Origin: a virus
Taxonomy: Duplodnaviria > Caudoviricetes
DNA: 36,441 nt
Strand: one strand, 5' to 3'
IMG/VR virus record: IMGVR_UViG_3300025018_000073
Span: 1 to 36,441 of that record
Under the pieces are notes generated by a model. The model was not told the origin of the DNA. It searched no databases and saw only the letters and a list, made by a program, of their open reading frames with translations. The position numbers were made by a program, and so were the translations under genes. How positions within the stretch are numbered: the stretch's first letter is position 1; every line of letters begins with the position of its first letter. Positions 6,600 through 35,200 of this stretch are shown piece after piece.

Positions 6600-6649
6600 A
6601 TATATTTTATTTATTATTTATTAAAAATTTTTTCATTTTTTTAAAAAAT

Positions 6650-6780
6650 GTAAAGTAAAGTAAAGTAAAGTAAAGTAAAGTAAAGTAAAGTAAAGTAAAG
6701 TAAAGTAAAGTAAAGTGTACTCGCCTATACAAAGCCTTTCAAAGCCTATATATAGCCTATCTAGTAAGCTAATTTAAGCC
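6650..6780. repeat. (GTAAA)13 pentanucleotide array followed by ~10-bp-phased AGCCT-type repeats, non-coding
   Basis: GTAAA x13 at 6650-6714, then cgcctatacaaagcctttcaaagcctatatatagcctatc; AT-rich flanks. Confidence 0.9.
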
Positions 6781-6985: not shown

Positions 6986-7459
6986 TTAAATATCATATTT
7001 TTTTATTGTTTTTTCCATCCATTTCATATTGTCAATATAAATTTTTGTCATTGTTTTTTCCTCATCTGTAAATTTTAAAGCATCCATTAAATGTTGAATT
7101 GTCCAACCATCAAATGTTGGTAAAGCATCTCAACTCTCTAATCTAGCCAATGCTCTTTGATCTGTTTTGATCTCTTTTACAAGATCTGACAAATCAATCT
7201 CAAGTTTTAATCTTTTATATCTGATAAATGTTCAAAATAATGATGGTGTTTTTGGATACCACTTTTTTAAATTATCTTTATAAAATGCATCTCTATCAAG
7301 TTTAAAAAAATCATATAATATATCCAAAGTTGTTTTATTATATTTTTTCCAATCTCTTTTTAATATAGAATAAAATACACCTGTACAAACTCAAGTTTTA
7401 TTGTGTAAATCTTGGATTGTGTTTTTGTCCAAATACTCTCTTATTTTTTCAACTAGCAT
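6986..7459 (-). CDS. XRE-type helix-turn-helix regulator (probably two HTH units), 157 aa
   Basis: FGTFIRYKRLKLEIDLSDLVKEIKTDQRALARLESGDALP is XRE-like; N-terminal TIQDLHNKTGVCTGVFYSILK is also HTH-like. Confidence 0.7.
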
Positions 7460-12993: not shown

Positions 12994-13191
12994 TTATAAT
13001 TCAAGTCAAAGATTTTCTTTGATCTTTTTTAAACTTTGTATACTTATTTTTTCCCTTTTTCTAAATTTAAACAAGCTTGTTTCTGTTAAGCCTACCTTTG
13101 TCATCAACCCTGCAATAGTTAAAAGATTTTTTCTTTGATAAGTTTTCAACTTATTATCCATTGCTTTTGTGTATTTTATACCTTTAATCAT
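12994..13191 (-). CDS. Cro/XRE-like small HTH protein, 65 aa
   Basis: LTIAGLMTKVGLTETSLFKFRKREKISIQSLKKI; first gene after the promoter at 13253. Confidence 0.65.
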
Positions 13192-13225: not shown

Positions 13226-13260
13226 ATTATATGTTTTTTACTTATTATTTCAAGTTTTTT
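13226..13260 (-). promoter_or_regulatory. Early-type promoter AAAAAAC-TTGAAA-16bp-TATAAT
   Basis: -35 at 13253-13248, -10 at 13231-13226. Confidence 0.8.
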
Positions 13261-15316: not shown

Positions 15317-16284
15317 CTAAAATGCAATATCTGATATATCATCCTTTATATATTGGAAAAAATGTTCAATTACTGAAATTGTCCATCAATTTCAACACAT
15401 TTTAATAATTTGGTTATCACTAACATCAAATTTATACCAATCTGGCACTGCTTGTAATTTCATATATTCTCATGATGTAAGTTTTCTTATTTTTAAATCC
15501 TCCATAATTACTCACATATTTAATGATGTTGTAAGAGTTCAAGATTTTCATTTTTTCACTCTCCCTCTTTTTGTTTTACTTTCTGGGAAATCTAAAATCA
15601 CACTATCTCACCACCCCCCTCAATCCATCATTGTTTTGTTGCATTTCTAATATGTAATACATTTTTTTCTTGATCGACTTTAAAAACAAGTTTATTATAT
15701 AAAACATCATCAATATAATATTTTGATCCTGGATCTTTAATTAAAATATCTTTTAATAATATATTTTTATTTTTTGGTTGATTTACTTTTATTTGTTTAT
15801 ATGTTCAATCATTTTGTAATTTTCAAAACCAATACAATCTATCTCTATTTTATGCTGTCAAAAGTCATGAATTTATTTTTATTGGTTGTATTCACAAATA
15901 ATCTGATATTACATTTTGCCACTCTTTTTTCATTACAACATTTTCAAGAAAAAAATATTTTGGTTTTGTTTCTTTTAATAATCTTACATATTCAAAAAAT
16001 AAAGCACTTCTTGGATCATTAAAATTTAATCATTTTCATGATCTTGAAAATCATTGACATGGTGATCATCAAATAAGTATATCAAAATCACAAAATCAAT
16101 TACTATAATCTAATCATTTTATATCTCAAAGATGTATCATTTCTGGAAAATTTGTTTTTGCAACATATATTGCATGTTTATCAATTTCACTTGCAAAATA
16201 TTCATCAACCTTTAATTGAATATTTTTAAGTGCTATTTGGCCACAACTCATACCATCAAATAATGATAAAACTTTTAATCACAT
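15317..16284 (-). pseudogene. C5 DNA cytosine methyltransferase with a nonsense codon and a frameshift
   Basis: VLSLFDGMSCG, ASEID, IGGSPCQGFS, LENV, C-terminal GNGWT; in-frame TAA at 15850-15852 in TA*NRDRLYW; frame change at a G6 tract (15614-15619). Confidence 0.85.
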
Positions 16285-17224: not shown

Positions 17225-17352
17225 AATTGCAAATTTAATACTAAACAATTTAATCATGAAACAATTAAATCTGGACATCTATATCTTGTTGGATTTTCAA
17301 CAACTTGATCAATTTTTTTCAAAATTTTATCTATTCTTTTTTTATTACTCAT
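17212..17352 (-). CDS. Small protein, first gene of an early operon, 46 aa
   Basis: ATG in ACAATACCATG context just downstream of the promoter at 17434. Confidence 0.5.
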
Positions 17353-17406
17353 GGTATTGTGTAATTATTAAAGTAAAATATTGACTTGTTTTACAAGTAC
17401 AAAATA

Positions 17407-17442
17407 ATTATATCATATTTTATTTATATTTCAAGTTTTTTT
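17407..17442 (-). promoter_or_regulatory. Early-type promoter AAAAAC-TTGAAA-16bp-TATAAT (leftward half of a divergent pair)
   Basis: -35 at 17434-17429, -10 at 17412-17407. Confidence 0.8.
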
Positions 17443-17496
17443 ACACTTTTTTTCTTGTTTTGTTTCATTTTCTTTTAAAAATATGATAATAAAGGC

Positions 17497-17533
17497 AAAA
17501 AAAACTTGATTTATTTTATTTAATTTATATAAT
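17497..17533 (+). promoter_or_regulatory. Plus-strand promoter AAAAAAAAC-TTGATT-16bp-TATAAT
   Basis: -35 at 17506-17511, -10 at 17528-17533; same architecture as the minus-strand early promoters; no protein gene downstream. Confidence 0.75.
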
Positions 17534-17539
17534 TATTTC

Positions 17540-17611
17540 GCATGGTATTGTATAATAAATCATTATACAATTTTAAAAAAGAGGTGTGGTTTATCCAACA
17601 CCCCTTTTTTT
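17540..17611 (+). ncRNA. Putative trans-acting antisense small RNA, ~72 nt
   Basis: Bounded by a promoter and a hairpin+U7; 5' CAUGGUAUUGUAUAAUAAAU is complementary to several early start-codon regions; internal hairpin 17547-17571. Confidence 0.6.
17575..17611. terminator. Bidirectional intrinsic terminator
   Basis: A6-gaggtgtgg-tttat-ccaacacccc-T7; ends the minus-strand replication operon and could end the plus-strand RNA. Confidence 0.75.
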
Positions 17612-17749
17612 ATTGTTTATTTTTTTTATATATCAAATTGAATAAATATACTCCAATTGTTTTTCTGTGAAAGGATGATCAATATAATATAAATCATCAT
17701 CTGAAAACCCCTCATCACTTTTTATTTGCTTTTGCATGGCTTTAAAGTG

Positions 17750-18259: not shown

Positions 18260-18969
18260 GATTTATTATTATTAAAATAATTTGATCATCATTTTTTGCT
18301 CCATTTTTTTTCATTTGAAATAAAAGTCCCAAATCTTCTTGTAACTTCAAATGTTGTCTCAAGATCATATTTAATTTTTGTCATTGATTTATTTGGCTCT
18401 GTCCAATATTTTACAAAAGTTTTTCATAATACATCAATATCTTGATCTGATAATCAATGTTCTTTTTTTATATAATCTCTATTTATATTTTTTGTAAGTT
18501 TTATAAATTCATTTGTTTTTTCAATTATAATTTCTGATCAAGTTTCTTGATCTGTTTGGTTATGTAAAGTTAAGTAAGGTATAGTTAAGTTAAGTAAAGT
18601 AAAGTAAGGTAGGCTTTCAAACCCTTTCAAAGCCTTTATTATTGGCTCTGGTATACTGTTAATAATTCTTTGCATCCCTTTTATTACATTTGGATTATTT
18701 GCTTGATTTTTTGCAAAGTTTTTTAATATAATCCAATCTTTTTCTTTTAAAATTTTTCAATCTTTTTCAAATCTTGTCAAAATCTTATTAACCATGTCTT
18801 TGTCAAATCATGTCTCATAAGCAATCCTTTTTATTTTTATTTCATAAGCACCTGCAATATTACAAAGTGGATTTGATAATAAATATAAAAATATAAGTTT
18901 CTCACTTGGATCAAGATCCTCAATATATGGATCTGTCCAAAAACTGTCATTTATTATTCTTTGTGTCAT
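18238..18969 (-). CDS. Phage replication initiator / replisome organizer, 243 aa
   Basis: RIINDSFWTDPYIEDLDPSEKLIFLYLLSNPLCNIAGAY..IAYETG; internal pentamer repeats; C-terminal FVKYWTEPN..TFEVTRR. Confidence 0.85.
18563..18636. repeat. Degenerate GTAAA/GTTAA pentamer repeats plus two CTTTCAAA within the initiator gene; candidate origin
   Basis: gtaaagttaagtaaggtatagttaagttaagtaaagtaaagtaaggtaggctttcaaaccctttcaaagcct; lambdoid-type origins lie inside the initiator gene. Confidence 0.6.
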
Positions 18970-18995
18970 GGTATTGTACAATAAATAATTAAAAT

Positions 18996-19124
18996 AAAAA
19001 AAACCAAACTAATGTTGTGAGTATAGTTTGGTTTTACACCTGTCAAATTTTTACTTTGGCAAGTTACATATTGAGTTTTGATCACAACTTCAAAACTCAA
19101 CATGCAACCTCCGAAAAGGTGCAT
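18996..19124 (-). ncRNA. Structured leader/attenuator RNA upstream of the replication initiator (four hairpins, last is terminator-like)
   Basis: Stems at 19102-19124 (UUCG loop), 19071-19100, 19041-19061 and 19000-19035 followed by a U tract. Confidence 0.7.
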
Positions 19125-19129
19125 ATATA

Positions 19130-19163
19130 AGTATATATAATATATAAATAAATCAAGTTTTTT
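19130..19163 (-). promoter_or_regulatory. Early-type promoter AAAAAAC-TTGATT-15bp-TATACT
   Basis: -35 at 19156-19151, -10 at 19135-19130; predicted start coincides with the base of the first hairpin. Confidence 0.6.
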
Positions 19164-20466
19164 ATAAATCAACAACATCATCCTCTGTATATTCTGCTGT
19201 TTCTTTTGGTTTAAACTGTGCAATCCACTCTTGATATACTGTGATACCTCAATCAAATGATTGATCAAATATATTTGGCATAAAATCATCTTTTTCAACC
19301 AATAATTGATATAATCTTTTTATTGTTTGTTTGTAAAATATCAACCACATATCAAGTAAATATGATTGATCATCAAAATCAATAATATACTCATATACAA
19401 CTGGTTTCAATTCAATTACTCATTTTTCCAAAAGTGCATCTTGCATCATTGCATTTGTCATGTATTTTCAACCATTTCATTTTGCCCAATCAATATCATT
19501 TTTATCACACTCTGATCTCAACTCTGGTTGATACATTGTTGGTGGTTTTGGATCTGATGGTTGTATCTCAATAATCAATGCCTTTTTTGGCCTCTTTTCA
19601 AAGGCTGTAAAGCATCAAAAGAAATATGTTGATCATTGCATGTCATACTCTGGTTTTATTGTCTCATCTGATGATAATAAGCCCTTAAATTTCCAATCCA
19701 CAATGATCAAATCTAAATCTTCATCCTCAAATACTGCATCAACAATAAATTTTACTGGTAAATCAAGCACAACTCAATCAAGATCAAAAATATCCAAAGT
19801 TTGGTTGTATTCTGCTGATATAAGTTTCCAATTTTTAACTTTTGGATAAACAAATGCAAACCAATTTTTTAATCACATTTCAATCCCCTCTAATATTTTT
19901 TCAATTGATCATGTTGTACCATATTTTATAAAATCATCAAGTTTCTCATCTTTTTTCTTATGTTTTGAAATTGCTTTTTTTATTTTTTCTCATATTTCCT
20001 CAATTTCCTTGTCTTTTATTTGCATTTCTGTAAATACATTTAGTTTATCTTTTTCATCTTGTACTTTTTTATAATCATTTACGAGTTTAAAAATGTCATC
20101 ATATCATCAAAATGCAATCATTGTTTTTGAGTTCCAAAAATCATCTGGTTTTTTATTTTTTGTAATATAATCATCTTTTGCATATTGTTGAGCATTTTTG
20201 ATCACTGCACTCATTGTTGTTTCTGGATCTTTTGCATATAGTTTCCTCATTTGCTCATCCTGTAAAAAATGTTCAACTCAAAAATGACATGATTTTCAAA
20301 TTATTGTTGCAACATAAACTCAATTATCAAACTCATAATTGATATAATGCTTTAAAAATAATGCCTCATTATTCCTCAACTCTTTCATTGAGGAAAATGA
20401 TAAATATTGTATTCATGCACCCATTAAACTGTCTCTGGTATTATTTGCCAATATATTATTTATCAT
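19162..20466 (-). CDS. PD-(D/E)XK nuclease (recombination exonuclease partner of Bet), 434 aa
   Basis: YLSFSS..IGKSCH..LPVKFIVDAV..IIVDWKFK..QGSTY; adjacent to RecT/Bet. Confidence 0.8.
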
Positions 20467-20496
20467 GGTACTGTATTTAAAAATTAAAATATTATT

Positions 20497-21480
20497 TTAG
20501 TAAACTATTTTTACAATTGCTTGATCAATTTTTGCAATAAATTCATCTGCTTGAGCAACTGTCATCTCTTTTGCACTTTCAACATTAAAATATTTATTCA
20601 TTGTTGCTTTTCTTTTTCTCTCACTTTCCTCAAAATTCCATCCACTTTTTTCTGCAAATTCTTTCCATTTTATTTGTACTTGTTTTATTTTATTCGATGG
20701 TAAAGCATCCTTTACTCAATTTAAAACTGTATATGGTGTAATATTATCTGGCATTGCATCAATAATCTCATCAAGTGGATTTTTTGCATCAAGTTCCTCA
20801 TCTGTAATATCAACAACAATATCCACTTTTTTTGCTGGTGTTTTTTTAATTTTTGGCTTTTTTTCAATATCTTCTGGTGTATCATCTTGATTATCTTGAT
20901 CAACTTGTCAATCAATGATGTCTTTTTCATCTCTGTTTGCAATTTCCTCTGCAAGATATGGTAATGATCAAAGTTCGCTTGGAAAACATAATCTAAAACC
21001 TTGTCAAATAGCAACTTTTTTGATCATAAATTTTCCTTTTGTATCCCAAATTTTATTTAATTTTCTTACTTTTGTGAATTTATCAAAAAAATATCATGCA
21101 AACTCATCAAAATCAATCTCCCAAACAAAAGGATTTGTCCAATCTTTTCTGTGTATTGTTACTCTTGCACCTGCAATTGATCAATCATCATTTTTAATTA
21201 CTTCACAACTCCAACCATTTAAAAGTCATGTTGCATTTGCTTTATCAATATAAACTTGGTATCAAGTAATTATTGAAAAATTATCACCATATCAAACTGC
21301 ATAAATTTCTCTTTTAAATGGATTTAATCCATTTGCTTTTGCAATTTGTAAAAACAAATTTTGTTGTTTTTCATTGATTGGATCTTTTAATCAAAAAAGA
21401 TACTCTTTCAATGTTTGCTCATCAACTGTCACAATTGCAACTTGTTGATCCTTACTCTTTGCCAATTCTTTTCCTGTCAT
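20497..21480 (-). CDS. bet: RecT/Bet single-strand annealing recombinase, 327 aa
   Basis: FLQIAKANGLNPFKREIYAV..IITGYQVYIDKA..GARVTIHRKDW..W..FMIKKVAI.QGFRLCFP. Confidence 0.9.
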
Positions 21481-21530
21481 GGTATTATATATAAGAAAAT
21501 AAAATTTATCTCTTTTTTTGAGACAAGATG

Positions 21531-21582: not shown

Positions 21583-21786
21583 TTAATAAATTCATCTAGC
21601 CTCCAAAAGTTCTCTTTGCCATTTTATAGTGTCTCTTTGGATGGTTTCATATTCTGATGCACAGACATTATTTTGGTACTCTGTACCCTGTCATGAAAAA
21701 TATAAATATTCACAATTTATACTCTCATTTTCAACAATTCATACTGGTGCAAAAAATATTGCAAAGGTTATTATAATTTTTAACAT
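21583..21786 (-). CDS. Small exported protein, 67 aa
   Basis: MLKIIITFAIFFAPVGIV signal-like N-terminus, two Cys. Confidence 0.55.
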
Positions 21787-21867
21787 GGTATTATAATTAA
21801 AATATAAAATATATTCAATTAAAATTTATTGATTTTATTTTGATCATGTATTTCAATTGACAATATA

Positions 21868-31037: not shown

Positions 31038-31568
31038 TTATTTATTATAAAAATCTAAAAACTCTTTTTTAAATCATTTTTTATCTGGGCTTTTTGAATT
31101 TCTGTTTTTTTCGTATTCTTTTTGTCATGTTGTATATGGTAAATCCTTATATTGTTTCATAAAATATTGATATGGCCATTTTCTCATCTCTGACAAATGT
31201 TGTTTTAAATAATGCATCATTTGTCCCTCAATTATATGGAAATCATCCAACATATCCTCAACCTCTTTTTTTGGATCTTTTTTTTGTTTATTTTTAAATG
31301 CTTGGATCTTTTTTTGAGTATCTGTCATTTTATCCATCAAATCCTCATTTTTTCACTCATTTTCTTGTCAAAGCAAGATCCTCATAAATTCTCTTGATTG
31401 TCTTGTATTTAATAATGGTGCTTGATCATTAAACTCCATAAATATTTTATCCAATCATCACTCAAGATCTATATTGATATATAAATAATCCTCAAGTGTA
31501 AGATCTCAACAATAAAAAGTTTTTCCATGATATAAAAAAGTATTTTTTTGCCTTATCAAAGCTGTCAT
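31038..31568 (-). CDS. Tail assembly chaperone (second, T-like ORF), 176 aa
   Basis: Position before the tape measure; overlaps the preceding ORF in the -1 frame. Confidence 0.6.
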
Positions 31569-31834
31569 TTTTCAATCTTTCATTTTGTATAAGTTATAAA
31601 TGCAAATAATTTATCTTTTGTGATATTTGAAACATCAACATTTTTATTTCTTATCTCAAGAATTTCTTTACAAATTGGTTTCCATTGATCAACAAGATCT
31701 CTTTTAAATATTCAAGTTTTTATATTCAATATTTTTTCAATTATTGCAATTGGTATGTCTCAAACTTCATACTCAATACCATTTATTTTAATCAAATCAA
31801 TTTCCTCATTTGCATCAAGATTATATATTGTCAT
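31553..31834 (-). CDS. Tail assembly chaperone (G-like), 93 aa
   Basis: MTIYNLDA..IKINGIEYEVGDIP; follows the major tail gene. Confidence 0.65.
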
Positions 31835-31871
31835 ATTTTATTTTTAAATAATAAAAAAACTATTCTAAAAT

Positions 31872-31907
31872 AGAATAGCTTTTTATTTATTTTATTCAAT
31901 GTCTTTT
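31872..31907 (-). promoter_or_regulatory. Late-type promoter AAAGACA-TTGAAT-16bp-TATTCT, -10 inside hairpin ctattcta/tagaatag
   Basis: Repeat motif; inverted repeat 31860-31878 may also act as terminator for the major tail gene. Confidence 0.55.
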
Positions 31908-31909
31908 GA

Positions 31910-32686
31910 TTATACAACATCTTGCTCATCATATATTCTGAATAAATTTTGAGATCATGCAACTGGATATGCTTTTATTTCTACTGGTATATTTAATGCA
32001 TCATCTGTCGTATCATCTGATAAGAAAGTTGCATCAATTCATGCTCTATTGTAACCCTCATAAAATTCAATCCCAAATACTTTTCCATCTTCATCTGTGT
32101 TTTCAAACTTAAATCTATTTGTTGCAAGAGTTTTAATTATATCTCTATATAATTGCTCTTTTCTTGCTAATGGTGTATAACTATAATCTGCATCAAGTAC
32201 AAGTGCATTTGCTGTAATTGGCATTATATATGTGTATCAATCTGATCCAACAAACACTCTGTAATTTGTATTTAAAACAAGAGGTGTACCATCTGCATCA
32301 ATTACTATTGATGTAACTTCTGTATTGTCTCCATTTTTAAATGCAAGTTTTATTGGTTGATCAACTGTCCATCAAGTTCAAAGAGCCTCACCAACCACTG
32401 GTGTTGGTGTACCATCAATTGTTGAATAATCTGCAATCCCATCAATTGCTTGTAAGTTATCCAAAACAAATTCATATAAATTTGCACTAAAAACAACTTC
32501 ATCAAGTTTTACTTTTGGTGGCATTTTTGCATTATCCACAATAAGTTCAATTATTGATTTTGTAACATTTAAGTTTGCATCTTTTAATGCTCAAAGATTG
32601 ATCCATGTTGATCAACCATCTGATGACATTGAAAATATACCACTTCAAAATCTAACTGATTTTACTTTTTGTACACTATTTTGCAT
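31910..32686 (-). CDS. Major tail (tube) protein, 258 aa
   Basis: MQNSVQKVKSVRFGSG..INLGALKDA..RFKFENTDEDGKVFGIEFY..FRIYDEQ; after the tail terminator. Confidence 0.8.
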
Positions 32687-32719
32687 AATTTTATATTTAA
32701 AAATTAAAAGTAAATTATT

Positions 32720-33100
32720 TTAGCTTTCGCCATCCTCAATCATTTTTATATGTACTGTAACATGGTTTCAAAATGTTCAAGTTTCTTTGTCAAATGTTTC
32801 ATCAAATCACATAACATCACAAAATTTCACTGGTGCTTTTTTTAATCCATTGAATATTGAGGAAATCACCCCCAACATTATTTCATTGTCATTTATAGAT
32901 TTTCACCAAATACTGATCTGTATATATTCATTTCTAATACCCTTTAGATCAAGTTTTCATTGTGTAACTCTATTATAAACAATCAATGGCCATGCACTGT
33001 TTAATGGTGCTGTATTTGGATATATTCTTTGACTAACATATCATGACAATGTGGTATTGTTTTTAAGTTTATCAAAAACAAATTTTTTTACATTGATCAT
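32720..33100 (-). CDS. Tail terminator / completion protein (DUF3168-like), 126 aa
   Basis: VSQRIYPNTAPLNSAWPLIVYNRV..IQISIWG. Confidence 0.8.
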
Positions 33101-34513: not shown

Positions 34514-35158
34514 TTAATATAATAATCATGCAATCTTATATGATAAAATTTCAAGATCTTTTTTCATTTCCTCATTACATGATCACATCTCATCTTTTGT
34601 ATAATCAATCCCAAAAAATCAAATTGGATGTGATTGTGCATCAAACAATCAAATTACAAAAATTGATTTTATATTTTGTTGTTTAAACATTTGATAAACT
34701 CAAAGATCCTCACATTTAAGATCCTCAATATCTTTAATGCACATTACTTGTTTTTGTAAAATTTTTAAGTTTGTAAATGCAAACATCCCAACTGGTAAAT
34801 TTTGCAAATCTTTTTGATTTTGTTGTATATTTTCATTTACAACCTCAAAAGTATTTGATGCCTTTAAAAAATCTATTCATGAAATTGAATGTCCACCATT
34901 GTGATACTCAAAAATATATGCCCTATCCCCTTTATATTCATATAATGCTTTATACAATAATTGATGTATAATTGTGCTTTTTTTTATTGTTTCTGGCCAT
35001 TTTTCTTTTAGATCTTTTGCATAATCTCTCACAATTTTACTCTCAAGTTTTTTATAATATAAATTTACTATTTTTGCCATATAATATAAAACAAAACCTG
35101 TAATTAAAAAAGTGATCCCATGGTTTTCAATCAAAATTATTGTATTTTCTATTGTCAT
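34514..35158 (-). CDS. Single-TM + GAF-like domain protein, holin-like (T4 T architecture), 214 aa
   Basis: TM GITFLITGFVLYYM; DRAYIFEYHNGG..SNTFEV..IKSIFVIGL..PIGFFGIDY. Confidence 0.65.
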
Positions 35159-35200
35159 TATAGAGATTTTTTAAAATAAAATAAGTGCATGGTATTATTT

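Follow-up and report, generated by a model that had tools for sequence, protein, structure and literature searches.

Genome organization and relatives

The window (the whole stretch of DNA analysed here, 36,441 nt) is a complete circular siphophage record of 36.4 kb from groundwater, with a 120-nt terminal overlap. Its ORFs stay open only if TGA codes for an amino acid (genetic code 25), which points to a Gracilibacteria or Absconditabacteria host (PMC10746230, PMC9297842), and we infer such a host for this phage. All identifiable protein genes are on the minus strand, as a sequence-only reading of the window had claimed, and include those coding for terminase, portal, capsid and tail proteins, Bet/RecT, an exonuclease, a DnaD-like replication initiator, and SSB. 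The regions upstream of the genes are A/U-rich, with no visible Shine-Dalgarno motif. There are no integrase or partition hits among the 53 window proteins or the 28 + 7 scanned proteins of relatives, and no antirepressor hit among the 53 window proteins. A putative phrog_8 regulator (157 aa, 6989–7459) is encoded between the terminase and portal genes; it is about 80% identical in four relatives and has a weak match to a 434-repressor-derived domain (E 0.034).

Several other features of the genome are recorded here as observations. A 65-aa protein (12994–13191) has its own early-class promoter and is 58–68% identical in relatives; it has no family hit in domain or family searches and looks HTH-like by eye. 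The sequence for a C5 DNA methyltransferase (15317–16284) is spread over two ORFs of 144 and 104 aa, separated by an unassigned interval. At 6646–6760, GTAAA repeats in non-coding DNA lead into an AGCCTT/TTCAAAGCCT stretch; this segment resembles a repeat segment within the initiator gene (18560–18640) and is possibly a second origin or a titration site.

Protein searches recovered another three phages in which the early region is present (G001, G002 and G004), a late-region fragment (G003), and the metagenome fragments L226 and L227. The exonucleases of the relatives are about 60% identical and the terminases 71–79% identical. L225, apparently the window's own record, and duplicates of G004 are excluded from all counts. 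A capsid search added late-region fragments only, the GenBank phages contain only distant terminases (about 20–24% identical among the matches listed), and GTDB genomes have no relative of the exonuclease. Contigs from four other DNA runs are short, mostly identical pieces, none of which spans the locus described below. Overlapping samples of 251 and 400 Patescibacteria genomes yielded no code-25 genome, and neither did 10 picked ones, using patterns that may be too strict.

A predicted small RNA opposite to the early genes

Downstream of the replication operon, and back-to-back with an early promoter, is a unit with its own plus-strand promoter, a short seed, a hairpin, and a terminator (Table 1). 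G001, G002 and G004 all carry this unit in the same place and orientation, opposite to the genes.

Table 1. Features of the small RNA locus and its predicted targets in the window.
Feature	Coordinates	Strand	Remarks
A-tract and sigma70-type promoter	17497..17533	+	TTGATT 17506-17511, 16-nt spacer, TATAAT 17528-17533
Early promoter	17407..17434	-	Back-to-back with small RNA promoter
Predicted small RNA	17540..17611	+	~72 nt; 66-96 nt in relatives
Invariant seed, 13 nt	17540..17552	+	Nucleotides 2-4 are the anti-AUG
Hairpin 1	17547..17571	+	Covers 3' half of seed; loop length varies among relatives
Likely bidirectional intrinsic terminator	17575..17611		On the minus strand also ends replication operon
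Predicted target: replication initiator start	18967..18986	-	ATG 18969; strongest site
Predicted target: Bet/RecT start	21478..21491	-	ATG 21480
Predicted target: exonuclease start	20464..20476	-	ATG 20466
Predicted target: start of 67-aa gene	21784..21795	-	ATG 21786; no assigned function
Predicted target: start of first gene past divergent early promoter	17350..17360	-	ATG 17352; slot tagged in 4/4 phages
Possible sixth target: 10-codon upstream ORF	35188..35198	-	Stop overlaps ATG of gene 35158
Weaker candidate target: 48-aa gene start	17735..17741	-	ATG 17737; 7 bp including one G:U

The promoter TTGATT-16-TATAAT at 17506–17533 has the position and consensus matches that the sequence-only reading gave it, and is the sole plus-strand member of a class of five sites (AAAACTTGA-N18-TATAAT), the other four being on the gene strand. 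The class has no matches in 100 shuffles, although the pattern was drawn from the sites themselves, and a generic consensus promoter scan (128 sites versus 113 expected) does not by itself single out this site. All three relatives with the early region have a TTG-16-TA..T arrangement 6–7 nt 5' of the seed, and the -35 elements of the small RNA and early promoters are 72 nt apart in the window and 73–83 nt apart in the relatives. The class promoters at 13257 and 9961 precede genes without the start-codon tag described below, and the promoter preceding the initiator has a spacer of just 15 nt. We also note phased TATAAAAA-type A-tracts 5' of the early-promoter -35 in all four phages (17434–17460 in the window, and the homologous positions), which are possibly UP elements or regulator sites.

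The seed (nucleotides +1 to +13) has an identity of 1.00 over the four phages, compared with 0.37–0.48 in its flanks. The segment 17540–17611 folds into a free 5' end, hairpin 1, and the terminator (z -4.2), reproducing the fold proposed earlier for 17547–17571. Pairing in hairpin 1 is kept among the relatives while the loop changes, and the hairpin is more stable on the small RNA strand in three of the four phages, G001 and G002 owing this to G:U pairs; the window is the exception, with the opposite strand better by 1 kcal/mol. The free toehold is reduced to 5 nt in G001 and to about 3 nt in G002. The window terminator folds at -16.8 kcal/mol on the minus strand versus -13.2 on the plus strand, in line with a caveat of the sequence-only reading. 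The stem is stronger on the gene strand in all four phages and the U-run is longer on the small RNA strand in all four, a combination that fits a bidirectional terminator. The 3' end of the replication operon overlaps the terminator of the predicted RNA, and complementary read-through would pair with the RNA at -29.2 kcal/mol.

The absence of a real ORF, also claimed earlier, stands in that no ORF across the unit is conserved on either strand among the four phages compared, but the seed's own ATG does open a 67-codon plus-strand frame in the window, which shrinks to 3 codons in the relatives. On the gene strand, the ORF at the seed has 5–16 codons and is not conserved. A peptide-coding role was rejected. 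Rfam has no match over the window locus at E<=5, and none at the gathering score in the loci of the three relatives.

A seed-plus-terminator scan of the wider collection finds a promoter at the right distance in four homologous loci (three phages) and in none of the 76 other hits, and a promoter-plus-seed scan for seed variants gives 55 hits, with no homologs among those screened by genetic code. Among the matches listed, a scan with the seed finds only the twin of G004, and a structure scan recovers only the three known relatives. A promoter-CAT-terminator screen of loci of at least 8 kb returns the G002 and G004 copies only, and is insensitive, as it misses those of the window and G001. The more distant code-25 phages G408–G411, three of them incomplete, lack GCATGGTA (0/4).

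Complementarity to early start codons in the window

The sequence-only reading had listed five gene starts as complementary to the 5' end of the RNA. Its coordinates and matches for them hold, and these are ranks 1–5 among the 56 curated starts for pairing with its first 21 nt, the best partner being the initiator start (-25.2 kcal/mol), which lies 1.4 kb upstream of the RNA locus. Among the 1104 other ATGs, only two reach the weakest of the five, one of which belongs to the 10-codon ORF overlapping gene 35158. The pattern CATGGTAYTRT, which is post hoc, occurs seven times in the window, always on the plus strand (shuffle mean 0.07): in the RNA, at the five starts, and at the additional site 35188–35198, which was overlooked in the earlier target list. 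Independently of any choice of motif, permuting columns -4 to -1 over the 59 called starts, with the criterion of any 4-mer with at least two G/C at five or more starts, gives P = 0.00015 (0.015% of 20,000 runs). The predicted target set comprises the initiator, Bet, the exonuclease, and genes without an assigned function.

The tag is absent within 40 nt upstream of the gene 35158 homologs in four relatives. Gene 35158, whose ATG is overlapped by the stop of the 10-codon ORF (35158–35190), codes for a 214-aa product with a hydrophobic N-terminus to which family searches gave no name; it is possibly a holin-type protein.

Distribution of the tag among the phages

TACC immediately before ATG, which we refer to as the tag, is present at 19 of 99 early-region starts and none of 137 late-region starts in five records, genes having been called heuristically and the early/late borders in the relatives set by us; the corresponding p = 2e-8 is overstated, as the genomes are related and three of the 19 tagged starts are paralogs. 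Whole-RNA co-folding at or below -8 kcal/mol gives a similar picture, with 25 of 101 early starts versus 2 of 116 late starts (three starts having been added by hand). Two features outside the four bases used to pick the tagged starts also agree with pairing: a C at +4, opposite the first G of the RNA, is present at 13/19 tagged versus 27/183 other starts, although at none of the five window targets, and Watson-Crick matches at -5 to -9 number 55/95 at tagged starts versus 344/915 (p = 1.6e-4). The sequence-only reading had also emphasized G:U pairs; four of the five window deviations are indeed G:U-compatible, but over the 19 tagged starts G:U accounts for 10 of 40 non-Watson-Crick positions versus 104 of 571 (p = 0.29), and a general G:U bias across the phages is rejected. 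Two unrelated code-25 phage loci have the tag at 0/24 and 0/11 starts.

With the seed identical in all four phages, only turnover of the targets is visible among them. G002 codes for Sak4 in place of Bet, and its start is tagged and is the best-ranked site. G001 and G002 have initiators of a type different from the window's, which are tagged and rank first and second; overall, the initiator start is one of the two best sites in three of the four phages. The exonuclease of G001 and both the initiator and exonuclease of G004 are untagged, and Bet of G004 ranks only seventh of 56. The copies at targets are locked to start codons and not to promoters, have one hairpin arm only, and many are within operons. 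The amidase start is tagged in L226 and L227, and partly in G002, which in L226/L227 would be a lysis-gene exception to an early-only tag; as both fragments stop short of the RNA locus, they are excluded from the early/late tally. As further observations, three tandem paralogous genes for repeat proteins (L232 15502–16924; G002 31501–32923) are each tagged at the start, and CACT or ACT, which narrowly misses the tag, often precedes the ATG of late genes in G001 and G002 (12 of 137 late starts).

The initiator leader

The leader of the initiator is structured and ends in a terminator-like hairpin and U-run (window 18995–19156, minus strand; L223 11320–11465; L226 5262–5450; L038 12435–12630). 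It contains an upstream stretch of 7–8 nt complementary to the hairpin loop (19088–19082 with 19020–19014 in the window), the sequence of which differs between the window, G002/L226, and G004, and the leader is possibly a terminator/antiterminator or kissing-loop attenuator. Some of the leaders have weak seed-like matches. In G004, an ATG in the leader 68 nt upstream of the untagged initiator pairs with the seed at -15.6 kcal/mol (L038 ~12555; G004 9275); it opens an 18-codon ORF and may be a chance occurrence.

Proposed mechanism and alternatives

The sequence layout, the conservation of the unit, and the distribution of the tag are direct observations. The unit has its own promoter, a conserved seed, an intrinsic terminator and no conserved ORF, and the RNA is complementary to several translation starts above chance, all features of trans-acting small RNAs. 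From its occurrence in three relatives, the early/late contrast, and the turnover of its targets, we consider it likely that the unit is a real, conserved gene for an antisense small RNA, probably a repressor acting on the start codons of early genes. That the RNA is transcribed, pairs with these starts and represses them is what we infer from the sequences. Some observations count against it, namely the lack of any variation in the seed, the relatedness of the four phages, the untagged starts of the initiator and exonuclease in G004 and of the exonuclease in G001, the stronger terminator stem on the opposite strand in 4/4 phages (as with hairpin 1 in the window), the missing +4 C in all five window targets, and the shrinking toehold in G001 and G002.

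In the proposed mechanism, the host sigma70 polymerase would fire the small RNA promoter alongside the early promoters that share its class, giving an RNA of about 70 nt. Its free 5' end would base-pair over the AUG of tagged early mRNAs and block their translation. The unpaired 5' nucleotides would nucleate on ACCAUG(C), and pairing would then extend upstream, opening hairpin 1. As the upstream regions are A/U-rich and without a Shine-Dalgarno motif, the AUG and the bases immediately preceding it are what an antisense RNA can cover, and covering these together with the A/U-rich upstream stretch would exclude the 30S subunit. With a promoter of the same class firing at once, the RNA would accumulate with time and genome copy number, which favors a delayed brake; given this mechanism, the most likely role, to which we give about even weight, is a gene-dosage-dependent, delayed brake on replication, recombination, and other early functions. 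Superinfection exclusion would be a side effect of such a brake.

The sequence-only reading proposed an RNA-only repressor and immunity switch that would hold a carrier or lysogen-like state or shut off early genes. A conserved antisense RNA aimed at early starts is supported; a repressor made of RNA alone is a mere possibility, given the putative protein regulator (phrog_8), the lack of integrase and partition hits, and the untagged initiator and exonuclease of G004. A version of this, in which the same molecular mechanism serves immunity in a non-integrated carrier state, silencing replication and some lysis genes until complementary read-through from the replication operon switches it off, is possible, though we regard it as rather unlikely. 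It agrees with the position of the unit in all four phages, divergent from the early promoter where a repressor gene is usually found, with the ranking of the initiator in three of them, with the tagged amidase starts, and with the overlapping end of the operon, from which read-through would be a perfect sponge for the RNA; against it are the lack of integrase and partition hits in the scanned proteins, the phrog_8 regulator and the untagged G004 initiator, together with the invariance of the seed, whereas immunity determinants usually diversify. The broader joint reading is slightly more doubtful: a protein-free switch in phages of CPR bacteria, with an anti-AUG RNA in the repressor slot silencing a regulon defined only by the tag until antisense transcripts running on from the replication operon turn it off, the phage being a non-integrated carrier; new genes would gain the tag by a few point changes.

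Explanations that do not invoke an antisense RNA fare worse. The tag could be a generic strong initiation context for host ribosomes, a concern raised in the sequence-only reading, with the copy at 17541 as a dead gene start; ACC and ACT occur fairly often just before the ATG in the relatives, also in late genes (5 and 12 of 137 late starts, respectively). However, this is improbable, since the tag itself is absent from all 137 late starts, among them those of capsid and tail genes, which the same ribosomes translate, and from both unrelated code-25 loci, the short gene-strand ORF at the seed is not conserved, and the opposite promoter and the hairpins are left unexplained. We attach equally little probability to the motif being an operator that a phage HTH protein binds as double-stranded DNA: hairpin 1 forms an inverted repeat in the window and the phrog_8 regulator, with its weak 434-repressor-derived domain match, is encoded, but the distance separating the two arms differs from one relative to another, G:U pairs in the arms are specific to one strand, and the single-armed copies at targets follow start codons and not promoters, many of them mid-operon. 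The least probable is that the working RNA is gene-strand read-through, a sense decoy for a protein binding ACCAUG on mRNAs; the better folding on the gene strand of the terminator, and of hairpin 1 in the window, would suit it, but the motif then lies beyond a strong terminator, the orientation of the conserved promoter is opposite in 4/4 phages, and hairpin 1 breaks on the gene strand in G001 and G002.

Comparison with known regulatory RNAs

The predicted anti-start-codon RNA resembles C4 of phages P1 and P7 (RF01695) and P22 sar in being a small phage RNA pairing with a phage mRNA and blocking its expression; sar is described as blocking translation initiation of ant (PMC12197685), and C4 as needed for full ant repression (PMC8198154). 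Each of these has a single antirepressor operon as its target and works next to a protein repressor, whereas here one seed is predicted to act on several starts spread over the early region, no antirepressor (ant) operon is among the predicted targets, and the C4 covariance model does not match the window RNA. Phage P4 represses its own replication genes through an RNA, CI (PMC4825925). CI is processed from the target transcript and acts by premature termination through seqA/seqC, whereas the unit described here has its own opposite promoter in 4/4 phages and matches start codons on separate transcripts. The P4 CI and P1 C4 precedents cited in the sequence-only reading thus hold as analogies, but the RNA belongs to neither group.

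Plasmid copy-number antisense RNAs (CopA, Inc, pT181/pIP501) control an initiator and report gene dosage (PMC5415839), and the predicted control of the initiator is similar, the window initiator also having an attenuator-like leader. Those RNAs are cis-encoded with one fully complementary target, whereas the RNA predicted here would act in trans on many targets through a short seed, and its locus lies downstream of the initiator start, not opposite a rep leader. Its architecture resembles that of OmrA/OmrB-type small RNAs, with a conserved 5' seed, a 3' terminator, and several targets near translation starts (PMC2588501), but it is phage-encoded and always in register with the AUG, and its targets appear to have acquired a shared tag. 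Lambda PreS/LPR1 is a phage-encoded trans-acting small RNA touching replication (10.1101/2024.10.31.621285); it is described as acting on host genes and raising dnaN translation, unlike the self-directed RNA predicted here.

The phage antisense RNAs in these papers are directed at one phage transcript or at host genes, and in the literature searched, mostly papers outside subscription journals, we found no description of this RNA, nor of any RNA by which a phage targets many start codons in its own genome. Here, a single seed appears to address a whole early regulon through a start-codon tag, and the tag is re-acquired when genes are swapped. The regulatory RNA would come from phages that infect code-25 CPR bacteria, in which gene control has barely been studied, and it suggests a general way of repressing the translation of mRNAs that have no Shine-Dalgarno motif.
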